A DNA stretch of 64,000 nt from Deltaproteobacteria bacterium (GTDB taxonomy: Bacteria > UBA10199 > SPLOWO2-01-44-7). The DNA lies in NCBI GenBank assembly GCA_023265595.1, contig JAHFSU010000004.1, positions 1,667 to 65,666 on the forward strand, read 5' to 3'. Under the pieces are notes generated by a model. The model ran no database searches. It was not told the origin of the DNA and worked only from the letters and a program-made list of their open reading frames with translations. Of the stretch, positions 6,336 through 61,405 are shown one piece after another; the first letter of the stretch is position 1, and every line of letters starts with the position of its first letter. Position numbers and translations under genes: made by a program.

Positions 6336-6360
6336 GCACTCACACGAGGAACCAGATACC

Positions 6361-8081
<1,721 letters not shown>

Positions 8082-10544: not shown

Positions 10545-10586
10545 AGAGACTTTTGCTTTTGTATTATGGGAGCGTTGAAAAATGTC

Positions 10587-10655
10587 ACTCCTGCGAAAGC
10601 AGGAGTCCAGAAGTCATTGAAATTACTGGATCCCCGCTTTCGCGGGGATGACAAA
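10587..10655. repeat. hairpin repeats, family 2 (CTGGATYCCCGCTTTCGCGGGRATGACAA) plus a GAAA-loop hairpin
   Basis: ctcctgcGAAAgcaggag (10589-10606) and ctggatccccgcTTTCgcggggatgacaa (10627-10655). A near-identical copy is at 53411-53439. Confidence 0.55.
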
Positions 10656-18734: not shown

Positions 18735-18760
18735 CCACGAAGTATCCGGTTCCTCGTGAA
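18735..18760. repeat. REP-like family-1 copy just downstream of tRNA-Gln
   Basis: ccacgaagtatccggttcctcgtgaa. Confidence 0.6.
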
Positions 18761-32297: not shown

Positions 32298-32423
32298 GAT
32301 TGCTGAGTATGCAAACGGTGTGCCGACTTTTTCGCCCACTGATTTTCTGTGGGGATAATCTTGGGTGCCGTTTTTCGTACACAGGTGCCGAAAATCGTCT
32401 ATTTCAATAGACAGGAACACAAA

Positions 32424-32540
32424 ACTTTAGTCCGTCTGATTCAATTTTTGATTCAATTTTTTAACTTTAGTGAGTCTGCTTTAGTTGACGAACCTCTCTG
32501 AACCCGCTAGTTAGTCCGTCTGGTTTTAGTCCGTCTGAAA
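32424..32540. promoter_or_regulatory. four direct repeats of TTTAGTCCGTCTG upstream of the tolC-RND operon
   Basis: TTTAGTCCGTCTGATT (32426), the degenerate TTTAGTGAGTCTGCTT (32466), GTTAGTCCGTCTGGTT (32510) and TTTAGTCCGTCTGAAA (32525). The core is the reverse complement of the locally over-represented CAGACGGACT. Confidence 0.45.
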
Positions 32541-32548
32541 TTTCTTTA

Positions 32549-33832
32549 ATGATTAAAAGAACTTTTGCCATCATTTTGTTTCTTGTTGCATGTAATATGA
32601 AGGGTTCTACATTTGCTCAAACACCCTCCCCCATTACTCTACGAAATTGTTTTGAGAAAGCTTTGGAAGTGAGTGAAAGGGTCGCCATCCAAGAATCACA
32701 AATTCGGGCAGCCGAAGCAAAATATGGACAGGCGTTGGCAGCCATCCTTCCCAATGTCCATTTTATTGCAACGGAATTTTTGCAAGATGACTCTGCACAA
32801 CAACTCGGCGCCGGACAAATTGGAACCACGCTTACCCGTTTCTCAACGCCAACGGCAAAATTGAACGCCAAACAGCCCCTATTTAATGGTTTACGCGAAT
32901 ATTATGCCCTTTCCGTAGTCCATTCTCAAAAAAGACAAAATAAAGCCGAATGGGAAAATGCCAAAAGAAAATTGTTTGTCGATGTCGCCAATGCTTTTTA
33001 CACCGTTATCCAATTGGAAAAAGATTTGGAATTGGCCAAGGCCATTACAAAAACACTAAAAAGACGCCTCAAAGAGTCGATCACGAGAATGGACCTTGGC
33101 AAAGCCAGGGCCTCAGAAAAAATGAACACCGAATCCGAATTAGCGATTGCGGAAGCGGCCGCTAGCGAAACAGAAGGGGGACTTGCCGCGGCCAAAGAAG
33201 TTTTGGCTTTTTTCATCGGTCCTTACAATGCACCTCTGCTAGATGACGTAGAAATCCCGTCTGCGCCTAAAGAAGAAGATTTCGTTCTCAAATCCGACGA
33301 AAACCGTCCCGATATTGTCGCCGCAAAAGAAGCGGCATTTAGTTCGCGTCAAAAATTAAAAATCGAAAAGGGGGCTTTTTTTCCCACCATTAATGCGGAA
33401 GCAAATTATTATGCTTATCGTGTCGGATTTCAAAAGGATATCAAATGGGACGCCCTCTTTACACTCGATTTCTCGATTTTTGAGGGGGGAAAAACGAGGG
33501 CCAAAATTCAGGAGGCCAAAATTTTGTTAAAGCAAGCAGAGCTGGAACTCGATGAAAAACGACGCAATGCCAATCTCGAAATCAAAAAAGCCTATGAGGC
33601 CTTCACTCATGGACAAAAGCAAAGTGAAGCCTTTAAAATAGCGGAAACAAAGGGTGAAGAAAATTATCGGGTATCCTTAAAAGATTACCAGTTGGGATTA
33701 ATCAACAATCTTGAATTACTGGAAGTGTTGAGAAGTCTACAAAATGTCAGACGGACTTACAACCGAGTTTGGTTGCAGACCAAAATGGATTATCTCAATT
33801 TGAAGGCGAAAGCCGGAAAACCGTTGCTATGA
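32549..33832 (+). CDS. TolC-family outer membrane efflux protein
   Basis: Signal peptide, then two coiled-coil/beta-barrel repeats with an OMF-type N-terminus ..ITLRNCFEKALEVSERVAIQES..LPNV... Confidence 0.8.
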   Translation: MIKRTFAIILFLVACNMKGSTFAQTPSPITLRNCFEKALEVSERVAIQESQIRAAEAKYGQALAAILPNVHFIATEFLQDDSAQQLGAGQIGTTLTRFSTPTAKLNAKQPLFNGLREYYALSVVHSQKRQNKAEWENAKRKLFVDVANAFYTVIQLEKDLELAKAITKTLKRRLKESITRMDLGKARASEKMNTESELAIAEAAASETEGGLAAAKEVLAFFIGPYNAPLLDDVEIPSAPKEEDFVLKSDENRPDIVAAKEAAFSSRQKLKIEKGAFFPTINAEANYYAYRVGFQKDIKWDALFTLDFSIFEGGKTRAKIQEAKILLKQAELELDEKRRNANLEIKKAYEAFTHGQKQSEAFKIAETKGEENYRVSLKDYQLGLINNLELLEVLRSLQNVRRTYNRVWLQTKMDYLNLKAKAGKPLL

Positions 33833-36800
33833 ATATTTCTGAAATTTCGATACGCAACCCCGTTTTTGCTTGGATGTTGATGATCGGGCTTATTTTTTTT
33901 GGATTTATCAGTTTTAGCCAAATGGGGGTCTCTGAAATGCCCGATGTCGATTTTCCCGTTGTCACCATTCATACCACACTGGAAGGAGCGGCTCCCGAAG
34001 TCATGGAGACCGATGTGGTGGATGTGATCGAAGATGCGGTCACCGGTATTCAGGGAATACGCAATCTCTCCTCAACCGCCAGACAGGGAATGGCAACGGT
34101 GAGCGTTGAATTTGAACTCGATAAAAATATTGATGTGGCTGTTCAAGAGATCGATTCCAAAGTGACCCAAGCAGTAAAAAATCTTCCCAAAGAGATGGAC
34201 CCCCCTATTGTTACCAAAACCAATCCGGAAGATCAGCCGATCCTGTGGCTTTCTCTCTCCGGAAACCGTCCTCTCCCCTTCATGATGCAATACACAAGGG
34301 ATCATCTCAAAGATCAGTTTCAGACAGTGGCCGGCGTTGGCGATATTTTTCTGGGCGGGTTCATCGAACCTAATTTAAGGGTCTGGATCGATCAAAAAAA
34401 GCTGGAAGAATATGAGTTAACTGTTCAAGATATCATCAACGCTATCAATACAGAACATATCGAACTCCCTGCCGGCAGAATTGAAACAGACAAGACGGAG
34501 TTAAATGTCCGAGCCATGGGAGAAGCCATAACCCCGGAAGAATTTGGCAATATTGTGATTCCAAAACGGGGGGGAGTCCCGATTTATAAACCGATTTACT
34601 TAAAAGAGGTCGCCCATATTGAGGAGGGTCTTAATGACGTGCGCCGCATTTCAAGGACAAATGGGGAGCCCGCTGTTGGCTTAGGGATTCGGAAACAGCG
34701 GGGATCCAATTCCGTAGCCGTAGCGACCCGTGTCAAACAAAAGCTCTTGGAATTACAAAAACTTTTGCCAGACGGACTAAAATTAAATGTCAATTTTGAC
34801 AGCACCCGATTTATTCAAGACTCGGTCAACGAACTCAAATTTACTCTCTTTTTGGCAGCCCTTTTGACCTCTGTAGTTTGTTGGCTTTTTTTGGGTTCAT
34901 GGAGTTCCACCATCAATATATTAATGGCCATTCCGACATCGATCGTTGGAACATTCATTGCCCTTTTCTTTCTAGGCTATACTCTCAACACATTTACCTT
35001 TTTGGGTTTAATCTTGGCCATTGGAATCGTTGTGGACGACGCCATCATGGTCCTCGAAAACATTTTTCGTCACCAAGAAAATGGAGAAGATAAATTCACC
35101 GCAGCGATCCGAGGATCCAAACAGATCACTTTTGCAGCCCTTGCCGCCACATTATCGGTTGTTGCTATTTTTATCCCCGTTGCTTTTATGAAGGGGGTTA
35201 TCGGAAAATTTTTTCTCCAATTCGGGGTTACAATGTCGGTAGCTGTTTTGCTCTCTCTTTTGGAAGCATTAACCCTGACACCCATGCGCTGTTCCCAATT
35301 TGTGGAAGCCGGTGCCAGAACCAGCCGCATTGGAAAGGCATCGGATACTTTCTTTAGGACTCTGAGCCTTCGTTATCATCGTTTTTTAAAAATCTGCCTG
35401 AATCACCGATGGAAAGTAGTCAGTTTATCGATGATGGTTTTCGTCCTCTCCCTGACGATTTTCGTTTTTTTGAGAAAAGAGTTTGTGCCGCCCCAGGACC
35501 AAAGCATGTTCTTGATCTCTTTTAAAACACCCGTCGGGTCTTCTATCGATTTTACTTCTGAAAAAGCCAAACAAATCGAGGACTTTCTTGCAAGACGGAC
35601 TGAAGTCTTGCGTTATTTCGTAGCCGTGGGTGGTTTTGGTGGAGGAGAGGTCAATCAGGGAATGGTTTTCATCACATTGAAGCAACCCAACGAAAGAAAA
35701 CTAACACAACAACAATTGATGTCCGTCTGCCGTGAATCTTTTAATAAAATTACGGATTTAAAAGTGTATTTAATGGATCTTTCTACTCGCGGATTTACAG
35801 CCAAGAGGGGTTTTCCAATTGAGTTTACAGTACGTGGTCCCAATTGGGAAAAACTCGTTGACCTATCCCAAACGATCCAAAAAAAGATGGAAAAAGAAAA
35901 AAAATATTTTACCGATGTCGACACCGATTATCTGGCGGATGTGCCTGAAATACATGTGGTACCCGACCGGGAAAAGGCAGCGGCAAGAGGTGTCAATATT
36001 GAAACAGTCAGCCAAACCATCAATGCACTGGTTGGCGGAATTCGAGCTGGAAAATTCAAACAAAATGGGAGGCGCATTGATATTCGAGTCCGTCTCGTTT
36101 CAGAAGCGAGGAATAAGCCGGAAGATATCAAACAGTTATGGATACGAAATAACCAAGGCGAGATGGTCCAGTTAGGAGATGTTGTCAAAATCGAACAGGT
36201 ACCGACTTTGTTAACGATTACTCGAGAAGATCGAGAAAGAGCCATCAGCGTCTTTGCCAATGTAACTCCCGGAGCTTCACAAGCAGACGGACTGAATGAA
36301 GTGCAAAAAATTGCAGCTCAAATTTTGCCAGAAGGTTATCATATTGTCCTGACCGGCTCCGCGGAAACATTCAAAGAATCCTTTCAAAACCTATTCTTTG
36401 CGCTCTATCTTGGCATTGTTGTGGCTTACATGATTTTAGCCAGCCAGTTTAATTCCTTTTTACACCCATTTACCGTTTTACTGGCTCTTCCTTTTAGCAT
36501 TTCTGGAGCCGCCCTTGCGCTTTTTATTACCGGAAACTCTCTGAATATTTTCAGTATGATCGGCATTATTTTATTGATGGGAATTGTGAAGAAAAATTCC
36601 ATTTTGTTAGTTGATTTTACAAATCAACGAAGAAAAGACGGACTGAATGTAAAAGAGGCTCTACTGGAAGCATGTCCTATTCGCCTGCGTCCCATTTTGA
36701 TGACTTCCATAGCTACTATCGCTGCAGCCATTCCGCCTGCCCTGGCTCTAGGACCAGGTGCTGAGGCAAGAGTTCCCATGGCCGCTGCTGTTATCGGTGG

Positions 36801-36906
36801 TGTTTTCTTATCTACACTTTTGACTCTTTTTGTTGTTCCTTGTGCCTATAGCCTTCTCTCTCACCGGGAAAAACAAGACGAACGACGAAAAGAAGACAGT
36901 CCCTGA
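33829..36906 (+). CDS. RND (HAE1/AcrB-like) efflux pump
   Basis: About 1025 aa with 12 TM segments and two large periplasmic loops. Start MNISEISIRNPVFAWMLMIGL overlaps the tolC stop as ATGA. Classic AcrB blocks are present. Confidence 0.9.
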   Translation: MNISEISIRNPVFAWMLMIGLIFFGFISFSQMGVSEMPDVDFPVVTIHTTLEGAAPEVMETDVVDVIEDAVTGIQGIRNLSSTARQGMATVSVEFELDKNIDVAVQEIDSKVTQAVKNLPKEMDPPIVTKTNPEDQPILWLSLSGNRPLPFMMQYTRDHLKDQFQTVAGVGDIFLGGFIEPNLRVWIDQKKLEEYELTVQDIINAINTEHIELPAGRIETDKTELNVRAMGEAITPEEFGNIVIPKRGGVPIYKPIYLKEVAHIEEGLNDVRRISRTNGEPAVGLGIRKQRGSNSVAVATRVKQKLLELQKLLPDGLKLNVNFDSTRFIQDSVNELKFTLFLAALLTSVVCWLFLGSWSSTINILMAIPTSIVGTFIALFFLGYTLNTFTFLGLILAIGIVVDDAIMVLENIFRHQENGEDKFTAAIRGSKQITFAALAATLSVVAIFIPVAFMKGVIGKFFLQFGVTMSVAVLLSLLEALTLTPMRCSQFVEAGARTSRIGKASDTFFRTLSLRYHRFLKICLNHRWKVVSLSMMVFVLSLTIFVFLRKEFVPPQDQSMFLISFKTPVGSSIDFTSEKAKQIEDFLARRTEVLRYFVAVGGFGGGEVNQGMVFITLKQPNERKLTQQQLMSVCRESFNKITDLKVYLMDLSTRGFTAKRGFPIEFTVRGPNWEKLVDLSQTIQKKMEKEKKYFTDVDTDYLADVPEIHVVPDREKAAARGVNIETVSQTINALVGGIRAGKFKQNGRRIDIRVRLVSEARNKPEDIKQLWIRNNQGEMVQLGDVVKIEQVPTLLTITREDRERAISVFANVTPGASQADGLNEVQKIAAQILPEGYHIVLTGSAETFKESFQNLFFALYLGIVVAYMILASQFNSFLHPFTVLLALPFSISGAALALFITGNSLNIFSMIGIILLMGIVKKNSILLVDFTNQRRKDGLNVKEALLEACPIRLRPILMTSIATIAAAIPPALALGPGAEARVPMAAAVIGGVFLSTLLTLFVVPCAYSLLSHREKQDERRKEDSP

Positions 36907-36985
36907 CCAAATACGTCCGTCTGAAATCTCTGAGATCAATTTAATTTCTTTTATGCTTGGCATATCTCTTGCATTGATTTTTAGC

Positions 36986-37705
36986 ATGTCGTATCGCGCT
37001 CGATATGAAATTATCTGGGATGGCGCTACTTTTCACGTCACATGGCAATGCCATAACCATTCCTGGCTTATGCAATACGACTGGGCCAAACAGCTCTATT
37101 ATGATTTATTGCTGAAATATAAAAACAAATATGGTGTCAGTTTTTATTCTCACCACTTTATGGACAATCACGTCCATCTTTCCGGGAAAATAAATAAAAC
37201 AAAAGAGGAGTTTTCAGCACTATTCCAAGTTGTCAATACCATTCTAGCTAAAAAAATAAATAAACGTCTAAAAAGAAGGGGGCAAGTCATTATGGATCGA
37301 TTTAAATCCCCATGTATTCAATCAGACAAAGATCAATTGGCGGTAATGACTTATCACGACTTGAATTCATGGAGAGCACAAAAAGTGAAACATCCCAAAG
37401 AATACCAATGGAGCTCTTATGGTTATTATGCTTATGGAAAAAAAGATCCATTGATCACTCCAGCCCCAGCCTATCTGGGCTTAGCTAATACAAATGAGGC
37501 AAGACAAAAAATCTATCGCAAACTAATAGCTTCTATTATGGAGGAAGAGGGTATAAAAAGAAAAAATTATTCCAGAGTTTATTATATTGGAGATCCAAAT
37601 TGGGTATTAGAAAGAAAAAAACGGCTCAAGGAAATAAAACAAATTAAGAGGGAAGCATTCCTCTTAAGACAAAAAAGACAGATATATGCACAGGCACCGC
37701 CTTAA
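36986..37705 (+). CDS. REP-associated tyrosine transposase (RAYT, IS200/Y1 HuH family)
   Basis: Start MSYRARYEIIWDGATFHVTWQCHNH. HuH motif FMDNHVHLSG. C-terminal motif YHDLNSW...EYQWSSYGYY, the Y-x-W-S-S signature of RAYTs. Short (239 aa), single copy, no terminal IS inverted repeats. Confidence 0.75.
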   Translation: MSYRARYEIIWDGATFHVTWQCHNHSWLMQYDWAKQLYYDLLLKYKNKYGVSFYSHHFMDNHVHLSGKINKTKEEFSALFQVVNTILAKKINKRLKRRGQVIMDRFKSPCIQSDKDQLAVMTYHDLNSWRAQKVKHPKEYQWSSYGYYAYGKKDPLITPAPAYLGLANTNEARQKIYRKLIASIMEEEGIKRKNYSRVYYIGDPNWVLERKKRLKEIKQIKREAFLLRQKRQIYAQAPP

Positions 37706-37875
37706 ATTCCATTTTTTACTAAGGATAAAACAAAAATAAAAACCAAAAAAGCTGTTATTTGTACACGTGTATTATTATCCCCATTCTACAGCTATCCTCG
37801 ACCGTCAAAAAATGCTACTTCCAATTTTTATCAAAAGTTATAAGGTTCCCTCTATATAATGCTTAAATAATTTTC

Positions 37876-40356
37876 ATGATTTCCTGGATTATTCTTCCAT
37901 CTGAAAAAGCCGCAGAACGGATAAGACGGACATCCTTTTCCCAATCGAACCAATCCGTTTGGTTGGGAGAGACCTTTTTTTCTCTTCAGCATTTTTTAAA
38001 TAAGCTATCTGGCTCCCACACCAACCTTCTCAAGAAAAGCCTGCAAAAACATCTATTGGCCCATTGTCTTAAACAGCATCCGCTCAAATATTTTGAGAAG
38101 CAAAGACACCTCGGCTACTTGACTACTATTTTTATGACAGCCATTCACCGTCTAAAACAGGCAGATTTAAAACCAGACGGACTAAAAGAGAGGCTAAAAG
38201 AGAGCGGATCCCTCAAAGAATATGATCTTTTGATCACTTATCAGCGCTATGAAGAACTCAAGACAAAACTCGGCTGTATTGATAGCGAAGATCAATATGC
38301 ATCCGCTGTGGCAAACCTCAACAATCCCGAAAACCCATTAAAAATGATAACATCCATCACCTTTCAAGATTTTGACGAAGAACCAGACGGACTGAAAAAA
38401 TTGCTCCACAACATCGCCCAAAACTACCCCCAAATCCATATCGATTTCCAAAAAATTCCGACACAAGAAGCACCACGTCCATCAAACAATCCGCAACCGA
38501 CACCGGTCCAACTCTTTTCTCTCCCCACACCCCATCAAGAGAGCCATTGGTTTGTAAGGCAGCTTGAAAAAATCGCTTCCGACACAACAAAAACGAACGA
38601 TATCGGTATTTTGATGTCGGGCCCTGCCGGCTATTACGAATTCGTCTGGAAACTTTTGCAACAGATGCAGTTGACAGAAGGCCCCTACCCCTTCTCTAGT
38701 TGGCACGAAAGGCCGGAAGGGCGTTCCGTTCTGGAAGAGGCGGCGCAATTAAATCTCGAAAAGGCCACATTGACCGAATATCTTTCAGAACTGGTTCAAA
38801 AAATCCCTGTAGAAAATCCCCTCTTCGAATTTCTGGAGTCCTTTTATTTTCAGGAACACATTTTAAGCCTCGGCCATCTCTCGCACTCGGAATGGCTTTT
38901 GTGGCTCCACGAAGCGCTGGAGGAAAAACCGAAGCGGTCGGTTCCCGAATCGCTGCAGGGAATCCAATGGCTTCTCTTTGGCGAAAGAGATTATCCTCAT
39001 TTGGAATATCTTTGGGTTCCCAATTTAACGGAAGGCGCCTTTCCTCTGCAAGCGCCACAGGTTTTTTTTCAAGAGATGAAAGATCGGGGTCGGCCCGAAT
39101 GGAAACCGATTTGTGCAGCATTTCCGGACCCGCAAAAGTCCTTTGAACGACAATACAAAATGTTCCACCACACCCTGTCCCACACACACAAAACCACATG
39201 GCTCACTTTCCCTAGAATGGATAGTCTCGGTGGAGACCAATCCCCCTCTCCGTTCACATGGGATTTTGGCGAGCCCCAAAATGTCGAAACAAAATCGCCG
39301 TCATTTTTCGGCAATAATGAGGAAAAAATCCGAATCGATAAAAAATGGAAAATCGAACGGGAAAGACTCGACAACCATCTCGAAACAAAAGCGTTCCATA
39401 CCGAATTGGGGACCATACCCCTGCCGCCAAACCATATTTTCAGCCCTTCACAGCTGGAGACCTACGCTGAATGCCCGTTTAAATATTACTCACGAAAGAT
39501 CCTGAACATCCCTCAAATCAAAGAGCATTCGCCGGAGCTGGATCCCGATGATAAAGGAACACTTTTTCACAATTGCCTCGAGGCATTGCTGCGTCAGGAA
39601 GGAAAACTGTATGCGGAAGCCAGAAACAACCGTAAAAAAGAAGACGAACTGTATCTGAAATTAAAAGCGACGGTCGAAAAAGTTTTTCAGGAGTCGGCAA
39701 AGGAACTCTGCTATGCGCATCCGGAACTCTACCAGCGCCTGAAAGAGAAAACCATGGCACAGGCCGTGCAACTACTCGGAAATGAACTCGAAGAATCACG
39801 AAAATTGGAAAAACCTCTGACCCCAACCTATTTTGAATGGACATTTGGTCCCTCACCGGAAGAGGCCCTCCGAATTGAGGCACAAGATAAAAAAGAACCG
39901 ATCCAAATTGGTGGACGCATCGACCGAATCGATTGCGATACAAATTCCAAATCATTTATGGTGCTGGATTACAAAACTGGTTCCATCAGCGGATTCAAAG
40001 ACAAATTGATGGAAGGATTGTCGCTGCAGCTCCCGATTTATCTTTTAGCCGTAAAAAAATTATTGCTCCCCGATTATCAAATCGTCGGCGGCATGCTCCT
40101 CTCCACCCGTTCCGGAAAAAAGGAGGCGGGATTGGTCGACAATCAATTTAATGAACAGCATTATCAATTGGGAAAAAGATCCGGCGCTCTCATGGATTCG
40201 GAAAAATTAGAGGCAGTGATTCAATCCACGGTCGTGCACATTCAAAACTATGTCGCTCAAATGCGAAAAGGTTATTTTAGCGCGCAACCGAAAGATTGCA
40301 AAGTCCGCTGCGATTACAAAGAGATTTGTCGCTATGCCCACAAACCGTTTGCATAA
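37876..40356 (+). CDS. addB: AddB-like helicase-nuclease subunit (PD-(D/E)XK nuclease with C-terminal Fe-S cysteines)
   Basis: C-terminal RecB-type nuclease motifs GRIDRID...MVLDYKTG and the Cys cluster CPFKYY...C-x2-C-x5-C (CKVRCDYKEIC). Lies immediately upstream of a UvrD-type AddA gene. Confidence 0.7.
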   Translation: MISWIILPSEKAAERIRRTSFSQSNQSVWLGETFFSLQHFLNKLSGSHTNLLKKSLQKHLLAHCLKQHPLKYFEKQRHLGYLTTIFMTAIHRLKQADLKPDGLKERLKESGSLKEYDLLITYQRYEELKTKLGCIDSEDQYASAVANLNNPENPLKMITSITFQDFDEEPDGLKKLLHNIAQNYPQIHIDFQKIPTQEAPRPSNNPQPTPVQLFSLPTPHQESHWFVRQLEKIASDTTKTNDIGILMSGPAGYYEFVWKLLQQMQLTEGPYPFSSWHERPEGRSVLEEAAQLNLEKATLTEYLSELVQKIPVENPLFEFLESFYFQEHILSLGHLSHSEWLLWLHEALEEKPKRSVPESLQGIQWLLFGERDYPHLEYLWVPNLTEGAFPLQAPQVFFQEMKDRGRPEWKPICAAFPDPQKSFERQYKMFHHTLSHTHKTTWLTFPRMDSLGGDQSPSPFTWDFGEPQNVETKSPSFFGNNEEKIRIDKKWKIERERLDNHLETKAFHTELGTIPLPPNHIFSPSQLETYAECPFKYYSRKILNIPQIKEHSPELDPDDKGTLFHNCLEALLRQEGKLYAEARNNRKKEDELYLKLKATVEKVFQESAKELCYAHPELYQRLKEKTMAQAVQLLGNELEESRKLEKPLTPTYFEWTFGPSPEEALRIEAQDKKEPIQIGGRIDRIDCDTNSKSFMVLDYKTGSISGFKDKLMEGLSLQLPIYLLAVKKLLLPDYQIVGGMLLSTRSGKKEAGLVDNQFNEQHYQLGKRSGALMDSEKLEAVIQSTVVHIQNYVAQMRKGYFSAQPKDCKVRCDYKEICRYAHKPFA

Positions 40357-40365
40357 GGAGCTGGA

Positions 40366-40400
40366 TGCCTCGTTGTTTTTCACGAGGAATCCGGCTCCTT
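40366..40400. repeat. degenerate REP-like family-1 copy in the addB-addA spacer
   Basis: tgcctcgttgtttttcacgaggaatccggctcctt. Confidence 0.45.
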
Positions 40401-43184
40401 ATGTACGCGTTGACGCAAAACCAAAAACAGGCCATTGAGTCGATCAATAAACCGACCGCAATCATTGCAGGGGCCGGTTCCGGCAAGACGGAGGTCTTGA
40501 TCGGCAGGCTGCTGCACATTCTTAAAAAGAGGGGGAGCGAGCTGGGCCAAATTTTATGCGTCACCTTCACAGAAAAATCGGCGCTCGAACTCAAAAAGAG
40601 AATCACCCCTCATCTCTCCGAAAAAATGAAACGGGAACTCCCATTTTCTCCGATCGGCACCTTTCACAGTTTTTTTCTTAATTGGATCAAAGAACAGGCA
40701 CCGCATCTGGGACTTTCAGAATGGGTCTCTGTGCTCGATGAACACACGACCAAGCTGGTCATTCACAAACATTGCCGCAAGGAACTTCTCGATGCGCTGC
40801 AAAACAGAGATCCTAACGCCCTGCTGCTCATTGAAGCGATTGAATTCAAACAAGCCCTGCTTTTACTGGAAGAATTGATGCATTTTCGATGGCATGCAAA
40901 AAAAGTTTTGGCAAACAACGACCAGAAAATGATCAAGGAAACGCATGTTCTCTACCAAAGAATTCTTGATCGTTACACGGATGAAAAGTGGAAACGACAA
41001 ACACTCGATTTTCAAGATTTGGAAATTTTGGTGTTGGATCTATTGCGCCAAAACAAAGAAATTTTAAAAAAGACCCAACACCGTTTTCATCACATTCTCA
41101 TCGACGAAGCCCAAGACATGAATGATCTGCAACGGGAAATTGTGGAGCTCCTTTTTCAACCGAAACAAAATTGTCTCTGCATTGTGGGAGATCCAAAGCA
41201 ATCGATCTACCGGTTTCGCGGAGCCAATTGGGAAGGCTTTAACACAATAGTAAACCGGATTCTAAAAAATAAAGGCCATCTTATTGATTTAAAAGAAAAT
41301 TTTAGATCACGCCCACCTCTTCTAGATTTTATAAACCAGACCTTTTCACCCCTCTTTTCTTCCGAAGAATATCTCCCGCTGATCGCAACGCGGGAAACGG
41401 CGGCCGAAACCGGTGTTTCGATACTTCCGGTGGCCACCGCACCAAAAACATCAAAAGAAGAACTGAGAAAACAGGAGGCCCAGACCATTGCAAAATATAT
41501 TCAATCGGTCGTGCGACAGAAAAAAGCCCGCTTCGGAGACATGGTCCTTTTGTTTCAATCTTTAAACGACACCCGTTTTTATGAAGAGGCCTTCCGAAAG
41601 ATGAACATCCCCTATCGTTTGTTCGGCGGGCGCGGATTTTTGAACGCACAAGAGGTGATCGATCTCCTCTTTGTCCTGAAGTTAATGGTGGAGTCAAACA
41701 ACCGGCTCGCGTTAGTCGGGCTTATGCGCTCGCCATTGATCGGATTCGATGACCTCTTCATTACGCAACTTTGTCAAAAACATCCGGTCGATTTGGGACA
41801 GGCTTTGCTCCAACTCCCTGAAGCAGCATGGTTAAAAACCGTGGCTGATCAAAAGAAAAATTTAAGCGGCGCCGGAATTTTACAAGAGGCGGTCCTAGCC
41901 ACCCATTATAATTGTCTGGCCGACAAACTCGATCCCTCGGGGACAAAGTCGGCCAATATCGAACAGCTCATCGAGCTGACACGTCGCCTCGAAACAGAAG
42001 AAGAGCTGTCTCTTGCCGAACTTGTCGAATATTATGAGGAATTGAAAAGGCGACGCACTCCGCTGGCGAACGCGCCGGTTGTCAGCGTCGATTCGGATAC
42101 CTGTCAATTCATGACCGTGCATGCGGCAAAGGGCCTGCAATTTCCTATCGTGATTCTTCCCGATCTGATCCGGACCCCGCCGGCCAACTCCAACCGATTT
42201 CTTTTTGTCCGAGGTGGTGGATTGGGTTTTGCGCTCCGGGAAAATGAAAAAGATCCGTTCAGCCCTTTTATCCCCACCTCCAAAATGGAGGAACTCAAAG
42301 AATTTGAAAAAAACAAAGATTATGCCGAACGGAAGCGCTTGCTCTATGTCGCCTTGACTCGGGCCATGGAAAAAATCGTGATCGTCTGGCACAACGAAGT
42401 CCGTCAACCCTCACTCTGGTATGGATGGCTACAAGAAGCCCTCGCCACATTCAAAGCGATATCTGTGATTCCGACGGATTCCGTCGGTTTCATGCCGAAG
42501 CAATCGACCACACTGGGAACGAACACCCAAGCCCGCTGGGATGAAACCGTTATCGTCCACAACACATGGAAAAAAGAGATCCCCTATTACACGGTCACCC
42601 AACTTGCAAAAATCGATTCCCCCAGCAACCTGTTTGACCCGCTTCTAAAAAAGGAGACATTAGACGGCGCGGCACTCGGCAACTTAGTCCACGCTGTTTT
42701 GAAACAGATCGACGACTCCAAAAACCGAGATTGGAGTGAACGAATCCGTAGAAAAAGTTTTGAACTCGAAATGATTGTTTCCGATGAAGAAGTCCGAAAT
42801 ATCCAAAATCTTTTGCAGCAATTTTTGGAGGGAAATGCGGCGCCACCCACATGGAAAGGCCTACACGAACTCCCCTTTCAGTTTCGAACACCTAACGCCT
42901 TTATCACCGGCATTATCGATTATCTCTGGGAAACGGAACACGGTTGGATTGTGTCCGATTTTAAAACCGACGCAAAAATGGAACCGAAAAAATATCAATT
43001 CCAGATGGATACGTATGCGCTGGCCCTCTCTCGCGCGCTGAAAAAACCGGTCTTAGAGACCCGGTTGCTTTATCTAAAACACAACAAAGCCCATATTGAA
43101 CCTTGCCATCCGGAACGCCTGCAACGGGCCGATCAGGAGTTGATAAAAAGGGTAGATTCCTTTAGACTCTCAAATCATGATTGA
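40401..43184 (+). CDS. addA: AddA-like ATP-dependent helicase/nuclease (UvrD/REP superfamily 1 plus RecB nuclease domain)
   Basis: Walker A AGAGSGKTEVL, UvrD motifs (ILCVTFTEKSA.., IDEAQDMN, VGDPKQSIYRFRGA) and a C-terminal nuclease GIIDYLWETEHGWIVSDFKTD. Confidence 0.85.
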   Translation: MYALTQNQKQAIESINKPTAIIAGAGSGKTEVLIGRLLHILKKRGSELGQILCVTFTEKSALELKKRITPHLSEKMKRELPFSPIGTFHSFFLNWIKEQAPHLGLSEWVSVLDEHTTKLVIHKHCRKELLDALQNRDPNALLLIEAIEFKQALLLLEELMHFRWHAKKVLANNDQKMIKETHVLYQRILDRYTDEKWKRQTLDFQDLEILVLDLLRQNKEILKKTQHRFHHILIDEAQDMNDLQREIVELLFQPKQNCLCIVGDPKQSIYRFRGANWEGFNTIVNRILKNKGHLIDLKENFRSRPPLLDFINQTFSPLFSSEEYLPLIATRETAAETGVSILPVATAPKTSKEELRKQEAQTIAKYIQSVVRQKKARFGDMVLLFQSLNDTRFYEEAFRKMNIPYRLFGGRGFLNAQEVIDLLFVLKLMVESNNRLALVGLMRSPLIGFDDLFITQLCQKHPVDLGQALLQLPEAAWLKTVADQKKNLSGAGILQEAVLATHYNCLADKLDPSGTKSANIEQLIELTRRLETEEELSLAELVEYYEELKRRRTPLANAPVVSVDSDTCQFMTVHAAKGLQFPIVILPDLIRTPPANSNRFLFVRGGGLGFALRENEKDPFSPFIPTSKMEELKEFEKNKDYAERKRLLYVALTRAMEKIVIVWHNEVRQPSLWYGWLQEALATFKAISVIPTDSVGFMPKQSTTLGTNTQARWDETVIVHNTWKKEIPYYTVTQLAKIDSPSNLFDPLLKKETLDGAALGNLVHAVLKQIDDSKNRDWSERIRRKSFELEMIVSDEEVRNIQNLLQQFLEGNAAPPTWKGLHELPFQFRTPNAFITGIIDYLWETEHGWIVSDFKTDAKMEPKKYQFQMDTYALALSRALKKPVLETRLLYLKHNKAHIEPCHPERLQRADQELIKRVDSFRLSNHD

Positions 43185-53404: not shown

Positions 53405-53439
53405 TGTCATCTGGATTCCCGCTTTCGCGGGAATGACAA
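53405..53439. repeat. hairpin repeat family-2 copy
   Basis: tgtcat-ctggattcccgcTTTCgcgggaatgacaa, near-identical to 10627-10655. Confidence 0.55.
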
Positions 53440-58438: not shown

Positions 58439-61405
58439 TTGACGAAGAAAGGGTTGATGACCTCCATACTAAACCTTGCCCATTTACAAACCGGTTCGGG
58501 TCTCCTCTTTGGCATGCCGGAGACCCTTTATGCCGACCCCAAAATCGCCGCCAGCGCTTTTTTGGCCGTTCCCGCGATGGAACTCGGCGCCGAACTCCAT
58601 GCCATCCGCGATGCCTATGTCCAAATTGATCCGAAGTCCGGTCAAAAATTTCGCCGGCATCTACACGACTACAAGAGGGCTTTGAAAGAGGAGGATCAAA
58701 AAGCCGCATGGACTGCGCAAAGATCCATGGCCGCTATTTTTCGAAGGACCGGCCGGCGGCATTGGGAATTTTTGTTGGAAAAACTTAAAAAAAAGGGATG
58801 GCCGATGAGAAACGGGTTTTTGAAAACGCCGGCAAGTTCGAAGAAACATGTCATCTCTATTTTGGAATTGAGAATGATGGAGTGGGATCCTCAAGATTAT
58901 CGGCTGGATCCATCCCGTTTTTCGATCACAGACCCGATTCGTATCTCTTCCCTGAAGACTGTCGAACAAAAGATCGCCTCCCTTTTCGAACCGGGTGCGG
59001 ACCGCGACCGCATCCCATGGTTTGTCTTTGAAGGGCCATGGCCCATGGACAATTTGTTTTTGATCGATCCCAAAAAAATTGAGGCCGCCTCCAAAGACTA
59101 TGCCAAAAAAGCGGTTGCCTTGATCACGGTTGCGCCGGAAAATCGGCACATCGCCCTCTATTGTCATCAAAACCGGTTCGGTCTCTGGGAGCTTTTTTGC
59201 TATTCGGATTATTACGACAACCCGGACGGCCTTTGGCAATGGGATCATCATGCCGCATTTTGGGAAAAATGGGATTTGACCGGCATCGACAAAGAAGGGG
59301 GCAATCGGTTTATCTTTGCGAACCTCAACACGGAGCTCTATTTTTCCGGACGCTTTAAGAGACCCATAGAGGTCGATCCCGATTACCGTAAAAAAATCGA
59401 AAAGAGAATGCGAAAAGGGACATGGATCGGCGAGAGATGGAAAGAGGTCCTTCAAAGACACCCCTTGTTATTCCGGTGGCTTTCCCTCCCCCACTCACTT
59501 GTGGAAATCCCCGTCTCTCTTGATGCGCTCCGTTGCGAAACGGATAAGGGTCTGAATGGGGCCACAGGGGCTCTCAGAAATATCTGGCATCTTCTTGATG
59601 AAAAAGACCCGGATGAAGCCGAATACAAAAAGAGGATCCTTTCTCTTTTGAAAAGTCTCCGCTACGGTCGCGAAAAGGATTTCAGAGAGCTCGGCCTTTT
59701 GCTGGAAGAGATGCATCAGAATGAATATATCGACCAACACCAAATGAAAGTCGGTTTTTATCAACTCACCAGAGCACAAAAAATTCTGCGCGATCAGAAA
59801 AAACTCGAGCAGGGCAAAAATCGGGAGATGGAGACCGTATCTCTCCGCTTGGGGCTTTGGAGACGCGATCCGTGGTTCGACGGCTTGATCGGCATCAGCG
59901 ACAGGGCCTATGAAGATTTAAGCAATCAGGTCCTTCTCCTTTATGCCCCCAACGGCGACATGCTGGACGCTTGCGCCCTTCGCCTCTTTGAAGATGAAAA
60001 GGAAAATCTTTATCTTTTTTATGATCCCCTTCCTTTCCCGTATCGTCACTGGCGTGTGGAAAATTACGAAAAAACGCTGTTGCAATGCATCCGAAAGATC
60101 GGAAAAAAATGCGGAATCCCCGAAGACCGGATCCGGGAGATGCAGGGGGTTCAAGATTTCAACTGGCTCCAAGGGATAGGCGGTCTCCATCCTATAACGG
60201 CATCCAAGGAAGAAAGAGCGGCGGCGCTGGAAAAAAGAAAAATATGGAGACACCCTCTCGAAGGTTTTCTCGCGGAGGGACAGGGGACCTATGAGGCACT
60301 TAATATTTTTGGGTCGAGCCGTCTTGTTTTTTGTAACCCATGGCTCGGTGATCGGATCCCGATCCCCAACGGATTTGATGGGGTCCCTTATGAACTTCTC
60401 CCTCCCAAAAATGTCGGCTTTCCTCTTTCACTGACAATCAATCCCGAACCGCATCTTGCCGGCACCCAAGTTGTCGGTTACTCAATCGGAACAGGACGTT
60501 CGATCGATCTGGCTGTCGATTTCAAGGATAAGGATGGGGTGCAATGGCATCACTTGAGTCTTGTCGGCGTGGGGAAGACACACCGCGCGCGGCTCGGGCG
60601 TCTGGAATTTCGGGATGGACAACACTCGCTCGATGTTGCCCAACGCCGTTTTTATCTCTCGAACCTGATGCATTTTTTGGGACTCCGCACCGCGCGCGGG
60701 ATGGCCGTCATCAGCGCCGAAAGGCCGCGAGAAGGAGCTTTCAAAAATGGCGCCTTGCCCCAAATTCAGGCTATCCTTTATGAACTCTGCCGGGAACAGC
60801 TTCGACTGGATGATTTGTCACGCGCCGAAAACCCGTACCGGATGATTCATCATGTCAAAAGAAAAATTGCCGCGGAGCTCGGCCTCCCACGCATGAGCGA
60901 TGCGGAATATGTGAGATGGCTTGGCCATACACTCGGTGAACAGTTCGCCCTGATGATCTTTTACGGTTTCGATCACGGCGTCTTCAACGGGATGAGCCAG
61001 CTTACTGCCTTCAACGTCTCCTTGGCCGGTGAGATACGCGATTTTGATGCGGCCGGACTGACCCGCGACCGAAATCGACTGCACGATCGTTACTTCCATG
61101 GAAAAAAGAGTGTTTATAGTACCGATTTGAATCTGCACGCCGTTCTAAGAATGCAGCAGATGTTGTCCAGAGGACCCCGAAACATCCCCCGCGCCACCGG
61201 CAAACCATGGCTTCATTTTCTGCTCGATCTGGCCCCGTATGCAAATTTTTACGATCTGTTTCAAACCGCGATGGATCGGAAGCGACAGGAATTGGAAACG
61301 AGCGGGATCGATCCCAAGGCCGAGATCCGGCGTTTTAATACAGAGATGTGGAATCCCTATATGCGGCAATTAAGGAATTCCCGTTTACACGGGGATGACA
61401 AATGA
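58439..61405 (+). CDS. large hypothetical protein, paralog 1 of a tandem family
   Basis: 988 aa, no TM or signal peptide. Shares blocks with the next gene: GYSIGTGRSIDLAVDF..DGVQWHHLSLVGVGKT, RFYLSNLMHFLGLRT, LYELCREQLRLDDL, MSDAEYVRWLGHTLGEQFALM..FGFDHG, DFDAAGLTR, WNPYMR. Confidence 0.6.
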   Translation: MTKKGLMTSILNLAHLQTGSGLLFGMPETLYADPKIAASAFLAVPAMELGAELHAIRDAYVQIDPKSGQKFRRHLHDYKRALKEEDQKAAWTAQRSMAAIFRRTGRRHWEFLLEKLKKKGWPMRNGFLKTPASSKKHVISILELRMMEWDPQDYRLDPSRFSITDPIRISSLKTVEQKIASLFEPGADRDRIPWFVFEGPWPMDNLFLIDPKKIEAASKDYAKKAVALITVAPENRHIALYCHQNRFGLWELFCYSDYYDNPDGLWQWDHHAAFWEKWDLTGIDKEGGNRFIFANLNTELYFSGRFKRPIEVDPDYRKKIEKRMRKGTWIGERWKEVLQRHPLLFRWLSLPHSLVEIPVSLDALRCETDKGLNGATGALRNIWHLLDEKDPDEAEYKKRILSLLKSLRYGREKDFRELGLLLEEMHQNEYIDQHQMKVGFYQLTRAQKILRDQKKLEQGKNREMETVSLRLGLWRRDPWFDGLIGISDRAYEDLSNQVLLLYAPNGDMLDACALRLFEDEKENLYLFYDPLPFPYRHWRVENYEKTLLQCIRKIGKKCGIPEDRIREMQGVQDFNWLQGIGGLHPITASKEERAAALEKRKIWRHPLEGFLAEGQGTYEALNIFGSSRLVFCNPWLGDRIPIPNGFDGVPYELLPPKNVGFPLSLTINPEPHLAGTQVVGYSIGTGRSIDLAVDFKDKDGVQWHHLSLVGVGKTHRARLGRLEFRDGQHSLDVAQRRFYLSNLMHFLGLRTARGMAVISAERPREGAFKNGALPQIQAILYELCREQLRLDDLSRAENPYRMIHHVKRKIAAELGLPRMSDAEYVRWLGHTLGEQFALMIFYGFDHGVFNGMSQLTAFNVSLAGEIRDFDAAGLTRDRNRLHDRYFHGKKSVYSTDLNLHAVLRMQQMLSRGPRNIPRATGKPWLHFLLDLAPYANFYDLFQTAMDRKRQELETSGIDPKAEIRRFNTEMWNPYMRQLRNSRLHGDDK

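Follow-up and report, generated by a model that had tools for sequence, protein, structure and literature searches.

We examined a single gene for a Y1-type HuH tyrosine transposase, here called the Y1 gene, in a 64,000-nt stretch of contig JAHFSU010000004.1 from a Deltaproteobacteria bacterium (GenBank assembly GCA_023265595.1). This whole stretch is referred to as the window. The Y1 gene is an intact 239-aa open reading frame (ORF) on the + strand (36986–37705) that lies between the gene for an AcrB-type RND pump, with its stop codon at 36906, and addB, with its ATG at 37876; the same neighbours are called in the public version of the contig. The public annotation of the ORF (P0001) begins 11 codons earlier and yields a protein of 250 aa. 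However, the 238-aa homologues begin at the same Met as the 36986 call, and a conserved promoter element lies downstream of the earlier ATG, so 36986 is the better start. The Y1 gene is present once in the window with no second ORF or tnpB next to it, and the rest of the window encodes housekeeping functions, among them enolase, mutL, purD, purH, addAB and gshA. A first-pass annotation, made from the sequence without database searches, had likewise described a short solitary ORF in a housekeeping setting.

The protein contains the HuH motif within MDNHVHLS, as first proposed, and both H62 and H64 are invariant in an alignment of 25 homologues. Y123, inside a VM-x-Y-x-D-L-N segment, is invariant in this alignment as well. 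The first-pass annotation had placed the catalytic signature at the tyrosine of EYQWSS, but this residue (Y139) is not conserved and is Asn in many homologues, and the conserved WSS corresponds to the 'SS' tail motif (residues 143–144) known for the TnpAY1 subclasses rather than to a catalytic signature. An invariant tyrosine does exist, as had been expected, but it is Y123 (YHDLNS). This residue lines up with the catalytic Tyr in both E. coli RayT and the published TIRYTs and is likely the catalytic one. Conservation extends over the full length of the protein, including a helical extension at residues ~150–239.

The suggested search with the Pfam model Y1_Tnp (PF01797) gave a marginal match at residues 15–98 (24.4 bits against a gathering cutoff of 23, E = 3.3e-5). 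Membership in the Y1 superfamily is supported despite this score by the fold. An AlphaFold model built from the alignment (pLDDT 86) has as its top match among solved structures E. coli TnpAREP in complex with a repetitive extragenic palindrome (REP) hairpin (4ER8, E = 1.4e-5), and the TnpA proteins of IS608, IS200 and ISDra2 follow behind it (E ~2e-3 to 3e-2). Searches of the PDB sequences with phmmer and with the family profile found no Y1 structure, and only the fold comparison succeeded. The profile alignment to E. coli RayT is weak, although it does place H62 and H64 on HMH and Y123 on the DYIYINP segment. Homology to TIRYTs is direct: hch1378 is 31% identical over 208 aa by BLASTP (E = 2e-21), with Y123 opposite its marked catalytic Tyr, and pca3049 aligns to the family profile with an hhalign probability of 99.1%. 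Pfam gives no match to a C-terminal HTH-type domain (Bac_DnaA_C, HTH_23 or HTH_28) at E up to 1, while two helices of the model (170–188 and 204–235) are conserved and align with the TIRYT tail. We found 344 homologues in a large protein collection, the best 120 of which are 50–72% identical and nearly all 228–250 aa long. A profile search of 1.84 billion representative proteins returned 24,899 relatives at E ≤1e-3 and 157 at E ≤1e-30, and by this measure the family is small and tight within a very large superfamily.

TIRYTs and the TIRtrons that encode them were described by Di Nocera et al. 2013 (PMC3733652). They largely correspond to TnpAY1 subclass 2.1 (PMC6006769), which is also group 1 of the REP-associated tyrosine transposases, or RAYTs (Bertels et al. 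2017, PMC5581495). Subclass 2.1 proteins have a median length of 238 aa, NHVH, Y[IV]HLNP or YIELNP and the SS motif, and they occur in ~1.9 diverged copies per genome with 'no REP' (Table 1 of Quentin et al. 2018, PMC6006769). Based on the TIRYT homology and the match to subclass 2.1 in length, NHVH and SS, sequence and model together place the protein among the RAYT-like proteins of the TIRYT, group 1 and subclass 2.1 kind. The RAYT identity first assigned to it is therefore retained in part: the protein is a RAYT-like Y1 HuH protein, but it is not a canonical REP-associated RAYT. It scores 39.7 bits against a cutoff of 80 with the NCBIfam equivalog REP_Tyr_transpos (NF047646), in a match that spans the full model, and it is not accompanied by GTAG hairpins.

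A scan of one genome per species identified 57 loci of this family, mostly in metagenome-assembled genomes (MAGs) labelled Deltaproteobacteria or UBA10199. Ends were compared across ~60 related loci overall, ~45 of them with full flanks. Several genomes contain more than one locus (six in nzgw603, four in JBDRBB, and three each in CAXXGI and HK-STAS-UBA10199-1); the Y1 copies of relatives number 2 to 6 or more per genome and are diverged, and 12 of the 57 loci lie directly at contig ends. The DNA that copies in one genome have in common is confined to a stretch from ~125–165 nt 5' of the ATG to tens or hundreds of nucleotides past the stop codon. Most copies are 77–91% identical, with one pair at 96.9%.

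The shared unit is flanked by a short inverted motif. The left copy, [C/A]AGACG[G/A]AG on the + strand, lies ~100–230 nt before the ATG and is sometimes in tandem; in the most divergent clades it reads [A/G]TGACG[G/A]AG. Its reverse complement is found in nearly all loci at +905 to +1016, 200–300 nt past the stop codon. Both ends are present in 38 of the ~45 loci with full flanks, with an inverted match of 8–13 bp and a unit length of 1029–1186 bp, contrary to the first-pass statement that terminal inverted repeats are missing. The consensus of the end motif across the family is AGACGGAG, and its variants track the protein clade: ATGACGAAGGT in the MANYPR clade, GTGACGGAGGT in MARIPR, AAGACG[GA]AGGT in MPS-PR, TCAGACG[GA]AGC in MAYLPRY, and CAGACGGAC[CT] in two further loci (L010 and L020). 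The units of the closest relatives of the window copy end in CAGACGGACG...CGTCCGTCTG. On these alignments the unit ends are short inverted copies of [C/A]AGACGGA[G/C], which in the sub-lineage of the window take the form CAGACGGAC[G/T]. A hairpin following the left motif is significant only in nzgw603 (z = -3.2) and in L004 (z = -2.4), so the general feature is the short motif and not a palindrome.

The unit in the window can be compared with a syntenic site that lacks it. For this purpose the RND gene was compared with its two nearest orthologues, one 80% and the other 74% identical, in their genomic context (loci L182 and L184). The gene order in L184 is ComM, peptidase M49, OEP, RND, addB, addA and GshA, with no Y1 gene between RND and addB. 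The distance from the last RND block to the first addB block is 39 nt in L184 and 1039 nt in the window; the Y1 unit is thus a ~1.0-kb insertion spanning ~36875–37884. The gene had been regarded as domesticated. However, this comparison shows a lineage-specific insertion, and its relatives are multi-copy and often located at contig ends.

Homology to the empty site of L184 and L182 stops at ~36875, which is where the left terminus of the inserted unit begins (AAGACGAACGACGAAAAGAAG, 36875–36895, + strand). This terminus aligns with the left ends of L185, L186, L002 and L003. Its terminal motif (36875–36884) is 111 nt before the ATG, within the range observed for the family, and is slightly decayed, differing by two substitutions from CAGACGGACGACGAAAA at the left ends of L185 and L186, the closest relatives, whose Y1 proteins are 69–70% identical to that of the window. 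The native RND C-terminus (R-x-E-K-Q/K) continues into AAGACGAACGACGAAAAG, which aligns with CAGACGGACGACGAAAA, and the RND ORF takes its final 10 codons from the left end of the element. An inverted copy of the motif follows at 36913–36923 on the - strand (ACGTCCGTCTG on the + strand, CAGACGGACGT on the -). It is the same 10-mer found at the ends of L185 and forms a weak doublet with the left terminus, the predicted stem having a free energy of only -5.2 kcal/mol (z = -0.4); nzgw603 copies have an analogous doublet at -124/-68. On the other side of the gene, the 3' non-coding part of the unit occupies 37706–37884 (+ strand), and sequence matching the empty site returns at TGGATT (37885). Because it returns only there, the addB ATG at 37876 is inside the inserted DNA. 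The insertion appears to have given both RND and addB new termini; in addB, codons one to three (ATG ATT TCC, 37876–37884) have no counterpart at the syntenic empty site. We also considered cTTCCaTCTGAAA at 37894–37906 as a decayed right terminus and dropped it, because these positions belong to addB's own coding sequence and are conserved in the orthologue without the insertion.

The motif is not limited to the unit itself. The first-pass annotation had noted a motif cluster centred on the Y1 gene, and CAGACGGACT is indeed over-represented: allowing at most one mismatch, the window contains 21 copies against 1.85 expected, a number reached in none of 100 shuffles. Thirteen of the 21, including all eight exact copies, fall within 32429–38393 (binomial p = 4e-9). 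The assignment of CAGACGGACT to the Y1 gene is also borne out, since its core flanks nearly every homologue in inverted orientation, varies with clade, and in the CAGACGGACG...CGTCCGTCTG form terminates the units of the closest relatives. These comparisons show the nearby CAGACGGAC motif to be the family's own end sequence.

Four of the 13 clustered copies are intergenic, consisting of an array of three between ComM and OEP and the copy at 36914, and nine are inside OEP, RND or addB. The array comprises three exact CAGACGGACT copies and one degenerate copy on the - strand (32429–32537) of a 129-nt spacer, at the position where L182 and L184 have a ~2-kb peptidase M49 gene. By tblastn, this gene is absent from the whole window. 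The spacer (32421–32548), whose array can be written as three exact AGTCCGTCTG copies and a degenerate one, corresponds to L184:2294–4679 and L182:2278–4632. The ComM-M49 spacer of the insertion-free L184 contains GTCCGACTGAAA at 2365–2385, one change from GTCCGTCTGAAA of the window. Within OEP and RND coding sequence there are seven copies (33748–36644), at 33748, 34769, 35592, 36284 and 36635 on the + strand and at 35720 and 36087 on the - strand, with the exact ones all on the sense strand. Two exact copies in addB (38174 and 38384, spanning 38174–38393, + strand) each encode P-D-G-L-K where addB of L184 encodes TTQNL and IPPQL.

The orthologous loci differ from the window in this respect. 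The 10-mer has no match in L182 or L184, their RND genes contain no copies of the motif, and the AGACGGA 7-mer occurs three times in L182 and once in L184 compared with 16 times in the syntenic 12.4 kb of the window. The spread of the motif and the absence of M49 are lineage-specific and co-occur with the insertion. At the motif sites the window differs from both orthologues by changes such as E to D, KS to DG, TTQN to KPDG and PQ to DG, against an overall divergence of ~27–30% between the genes. We examined whether the copies inside genes could be short 'patch replacements' and set the idea aside: identity is 63% in the motif columns and 71% in the flanks, which at this divergence is not clearly lower. 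These copies could have arisen either by point changes under a directional force or by short templated replacement.

The Y1 gene is preceded by a sigma-54-type -24/-12 element, TGGCATATCTCTTGC (36958–36972, + strand), which ends 13 nt before the ATG and is the only match to TGGCAY-N5-TTGC on either strand of the 64-kb window. Of 55 related loci, 44 have a relaxed form of this element and 32 the strict form. It ends 13–14 nt before the start codon in 41 of the 44, compared with a background rate of 0.002 per 80 nt, and near-matches are seen in most of the others. All but one of the loci inspected have ATG as the start codon. By eye no Shine-Dalgarno sequence is evident in the family loci, and there is no sigma-70-like site upstream of the Y1 ATG in the window. 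With the usual spacing of sigma-54 promoters, transcription would start ~2 nt before the AUG, and we infer that the Y1 transcript would be nearly leaderless. No such element was seen by eye in the upstream stretches inspected for the Pseudomonas and Skermanella plasmid relatives, which have GGGGWSAS-type repeats; for this reason the promoter may be confined to the present lineage, and the end motif is unlike those published. In the literature searched, which did not cover subscription journals, we found no report that combines a tyrosine transposase with sigma-54 and no mention of TIRYTs beyond the two papers already known.

In some relatives the end motif is also dispersed around the unit. 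Within the 10–20 kb available per locus, the locus's own 10-mer end motif occurs 15 times in L023 (1.2 expected), 16 times in L027 (1.2) and 17 times in L031 (0.6). The dispersed copies include solo ends with adjacent conserved sequence, REPIN-like inverted doublets 45–60 nt apart, and arrays. Their density outside the unit declines from 0.35 per kb within 1 kb to 0.05–0.16 per kb beyond 5 kb, where 0.059 per kb is expected at random. Motif copies in the relatives are depleted in ORF-compatible stretches (64% compared with a 92% baseline). Tandem arrays of 3–7 end motifs occur at one or both termini in L031 (5760–5870 and 6900–7080), L053 (1–120) and L051 (9860–9880), that of L053 consisting of seven copies of AAGACGAAGGTTCGAAATT. 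One repeat in L031, GCCGTCTGAA, is identical to the Neisseria 10-mer uptake sequence, probably by coincidence. In L021 (10940–12520), four ~70-nt right-end segments in the same orientation (cacAAGACGGAGGt[ag]ag.tccc...cgcacga..t.cgg.ctagat) lie within 1.6 kb on the 3' side of the unit, which suggests that solo right ends are able to multiply locally. A metagenome scan for CAGACGGACT-N(1–30)-CAGACGGACT returned at least 120 stretches. These are tandem repeats without relation to the family that vary widely in period and GC content, and no relative of the Y1 protein is encoded in any of them.

The likeness to TIRYTs includes both the protein (~238 aa, NHVH, Tyr in a Y-x-x-L-N helix, WSS tail, C-terminal extension and direct homology) and its DNA context, with flanking inverted repeats, families of solo, dimeric or clustered ends in some genomes, and few diverged copies per genome. 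According to Di Nocera et al. 2013 (PMC3733652), the terminal inverted repeats (TIRs) of TIRtrons make up repeat families of moderate abundance, whose members stand alone, as dimers or in groups. However, the end motif here is [C/A]AGACGGA[G/C], whereas the majority of described TIRtrons have GGGGWSAS. Canonical TIRYT examples, which are distant plasmid relatives, contain GGGGACAG or GGGGTCAG; GGGGWSAS-type repeats form a perfect 32-bp TIR in the Pseudomonas plasmid relative and tandem upstream copies in Skermanella. The unit here is also longer (~1.05 kb, with ~100–230 nt of 5' and 200–300 nt of 3' non-coding sequence) than the compact ~0.8-kb Pseudomonas plasmid example. In addition, it has a conserved sigma-54-type promoter with leaderless spacing and motif copies inside neighbouring genes, and its protein lacks a DnaA_C/HTH-type C-terminal domain detectable with Pfam.

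The E. coli RayT (TnpAREP) REPtron, a group 2 and subclass 2.2 system, provides the best structural match (4ER8), and both the HuH motif and the Tyr align with it. There too the gene is bordered on both sides by a short tagged sequence in inverted orientation, further copies of which are scattered through the genome, sometimes as inverted doublets. However, HMMER detects no sequence match to E. coli RayT, the protein here is 75 residues longer, there is neither a GTAG tag nor an obligatory hairpin, and relatives have several copies per genome. The TnpA proteins of IS200/IS605 elements (IS608, ISDra2, IS200) share the HuH/Y1 fold and presumably the same chemistry of single-stranded DNA cleavage and rejoining. 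The family described here differs from them in having Y---N (YHDLNS) instead of Y---Q, in its length (239 aa compared with ~130–155 aa), in its inverted terminal motifs without distinct left and right subterminal hairpins, in the low identity of copies within a genome, and in the lack of tnpB, for which a 1.05-kb unit leaves no room. The earlier judgement that the gene is not an insertion sequence thus agrees with our results, insofar as the protein is not an IS200/IS605 TnpA. Finally, the complement of the motif (CTCCGTCT) contains CGTC, and in some genomes a short stem-loop follows the motif, such as AAGACGGAGG-TTCGATTTTCGAACC in L023. Di Nocera et al. 2013 (PMC3733652) reported REPs with a CGTC tag for which there was no dedicated transposase; these published families, found mainly in Alphaproteobacteria, have a CCA tail and stems of 8–9 bp that begin with AT. 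No such stem structure is conserved here, and the likeness may be coincidental.

Given the insertion, the coincidence of its left junction with the terminal motif, the inverted flanking of nearly all relatives, the variation of the motif with clade and its local clustering, the Y1 gene probably encodes a HuH single-stranded DNA endonuclease/transferase of the TIRYT kind, carried on a ~1-kb TIRtron-type unit, with the terminal motif as its cognate sequence. If it works like IS608 TnpA and E. coli TnpAREP, the protein would bind the terminal motif on single-stranded DNA, H62 and H64 would hold the metal ion, and Y123 would form a 5'-phosphotyrosine link. By cleavage and rejoining it would then shift either the unit or its ends, in most cases to sites nearby. 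Transcription would start from the sigma-54-type promoter ~2 nt before the ATG; as such a promoter would need an enhancer-binding activator, expression would normally be off. The protein made from the intact ORF in the window could act in trans on the many exact motif copies nearby.

A number of observations weigh against this interpretation. Recent movement of the unit is rare, as most copies within a genome are only 77–91% identical, and in the literature consulted on subclass 2.1 we found no demonstration of transposition. The proposed activity of the family is drawn from analogy, and the putative sigma-54 assignment from a consensus match and its spacing. The co-variation of motif and protein is also expected from simple linkage. 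The window copy and its closest relatives have no significant hairpin at the left end, and the mode of hairpin recognition used by IS608 and REP systems may not be applicable. The unit in the window has no recognisable right terminal motif (CGTCCGTCTG). Considering that its 3' non-coding part is 179 nt, whereas L185 has 213 nt up to its right motif, a few tens of nucleotides may have been lost from this end. With a decayed left end and no right end, the unit as a whole is probably immobile; its ORF is intact, as are the HuH motif, the Tyr and the promoter element. In addition, the motif copies inside genes fit no known Y1 mechanism. A bolder proposal, which we consider unlikely, is a local motif-writing system in which a sigma-54-switched Y1 protein moves the unit and also seeds exact motifs into nearby DNA, including essential or conserved genes at a cost in amino acids, and leaves arrays at rearrangement junctions such as the 129-nt spacer in place of M49. 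If true, it would amount to short-range genome editing of a kind undescribed for HuH enzymes.

The interpretation of the first-pass annotation, which sees in the gene a canonical RAYT, domesticated, single-copy and passed on vertically, that mobilises REP or REPIN hairpins genome-wide, is unlikely, though somewhat less so than the other alternatives. The fold is nearest to E. coli TnpAREP, the window has one copy in a housekeeping neighbourhood, some relatives have REPIN-like inverted motif doublets, and the protein is well conserved across many MAGs. However, the equivalog score is half its cutoff, there is no GTAG tag or consistent hairpin, the unit is a lineage-specific insertion, and the hairpin families of the window are located away from the gene. 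The six or more copies in some relatives, the loci at contig ends and the pair that is 96.9% identical also argue against a single-copy resident. Insertion at a syntenic empty site, multiple copies with defined ends, and the frequent location at contig ends, as expected of repeats that break assemblies, could instead point to an ordinary autonomous IS200/IS605 element that is selfish and recently mobile. This is very improbable considering the class 2 Y---N in place of the Y---Q of IS200, the conserved C-terminal extension in a protein of 239 aa compared with ~150 aa for IS200 TnpA, and the absence of tnpB. Moreover, the ends are inverted copies of one motif and not two subterminal hairpins in the same orientation, and copies within a genome are mostly 77–91% and not ~99% identical.

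Two further explanations separate the motif, or the protein, from transposition. The CAGACGGACT cluster might be unrelated to the Y1 gene and represent efflux-operon operators, a Chi- or uptake-like signal, or a codon effect at Asp-Gly-Leu. Nine of the 13 clustered copies are inside genes and five of these encode D-G-L in frame, three copies lie just 5' of the OEP start, and the core resembles the Neisseria uptake sequence, CCGTCTGAA. Still, the same core flanks Y1 homologues in unrelated genomic contexts, the variant in the window matches the ends of the closest relatives, and orthologous genes without an adjacent Y1 unit contain no copies. A codon effect also does not account for the coding copies, as Asp-Gly-Leu in RND and addB is encoded by GACGGACT in 5 of 5 cases compared with 2 of 14 elsewhere, where codon usage predicts ~5%, and one copy within a gene is in another reading frame (ARRTE). 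We therefore consider an unrelated cluster to have little probability, slightly more than an IS200/IS605 element. The least likely possibility, with very little in its favour overall, is that the protein is an exapted, non-transposing DNA-binding or nicking factor under sigma-54 control, with the flanking motifs serving as regulatory or operator sites. Purifying conservation is strong over the full length including the C-terminal extension, the promoter element is conserved at a fixed spacing, paralogues within a genome are old and diverged, and the upstream motif and dyad are at ~80–150 nt, where sites for enhancer-binding proteins are expected. On the other hand, a promoter-proximal operator leaves the inverted motif 200–300 nt past the stop codon unexplained, and the unit behaves as an insertion with dispersed solo ends, doublets and arrays.

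Group 1, or subclass 2.1, is the largest RAYT-like group and has been reported without a REP family, a defined DNA substrate or known regulation (PMC5581495, PMC6006769). The Y1 gene is in itself an expected member of this large described group; what the present lineage adds is a substrate motif, a regulatory lead and the spread of the motif into coding DNA. The terminal motif differs from that of published TIRYTs, and the putative sigma-54-type promoter is unreported in the literature searched. The lineage offers a terminal motif that is conserved and sharply defined, natural motif differences between protein clades that could guide binding experiments, and both a filled and an empty site for one locus. 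Sigma-54 is a candidate regulatory input which would explain the apparent silence of such genes, and the lineage-specific build-up of motifs in flanking genes is a small puzzle concerning how short recognition sequences spread.

Two families of REP-like hairpins in the window had been noted as candidate cognate repeats of the Y1 gene. Both families exist; however, they were ruled out as cognate REPs because neither flanks the gene or contains the motif. The palindromes CACGAGGAACCGGATACCT / AGGTATCCGGTTCCTCGTG occur at four or more gene junctions (2835–2857, 6343–6403, 18740–18758 and 40352–40403, the last at the addB-addA junction), without the GACGG motif and away from the flanks of the Y1 gene. 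The second family, GGATYCCCGCTTTCGCGGGRATGACA, consists of one inverted doublet and two singles (10583–10653, 53413–53438 and 61375–61400) and has no cognate gene in the window. The proposed search for palindromes within 300 nt of the gene gave no GTAG-tagged hairpin, and the fold at the left end is not significant. An Rfam scan of 32300–38500 had no match.

We looked for a preference of the family for addB: a location next to it is found only in the window and in L185, and in none of the 57 genome loci, and is probably due to chance or shared ancestry. L185 (77–6183) is from a distant relative, with an AddB 47% identical to that of the window. Its Y1 unit, the closest one of full length, has intact CAGACGGACG ends and is inserted between addB and addA, so that it and the window copy are on opposite sides of addB. 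Chance, shared ancestry combined with a local hop, or a target preference may account for this placement. Two other loci, L006 (1–141) and L058 (9954–10094), are contig ends of one MEGAHIT assembly (k = 141). They share an identical overlap of exactly 141 bases within the first part of the Y1 gene, which is the signature of a branch in the assembly graph at a repeated or strain-variable copy.

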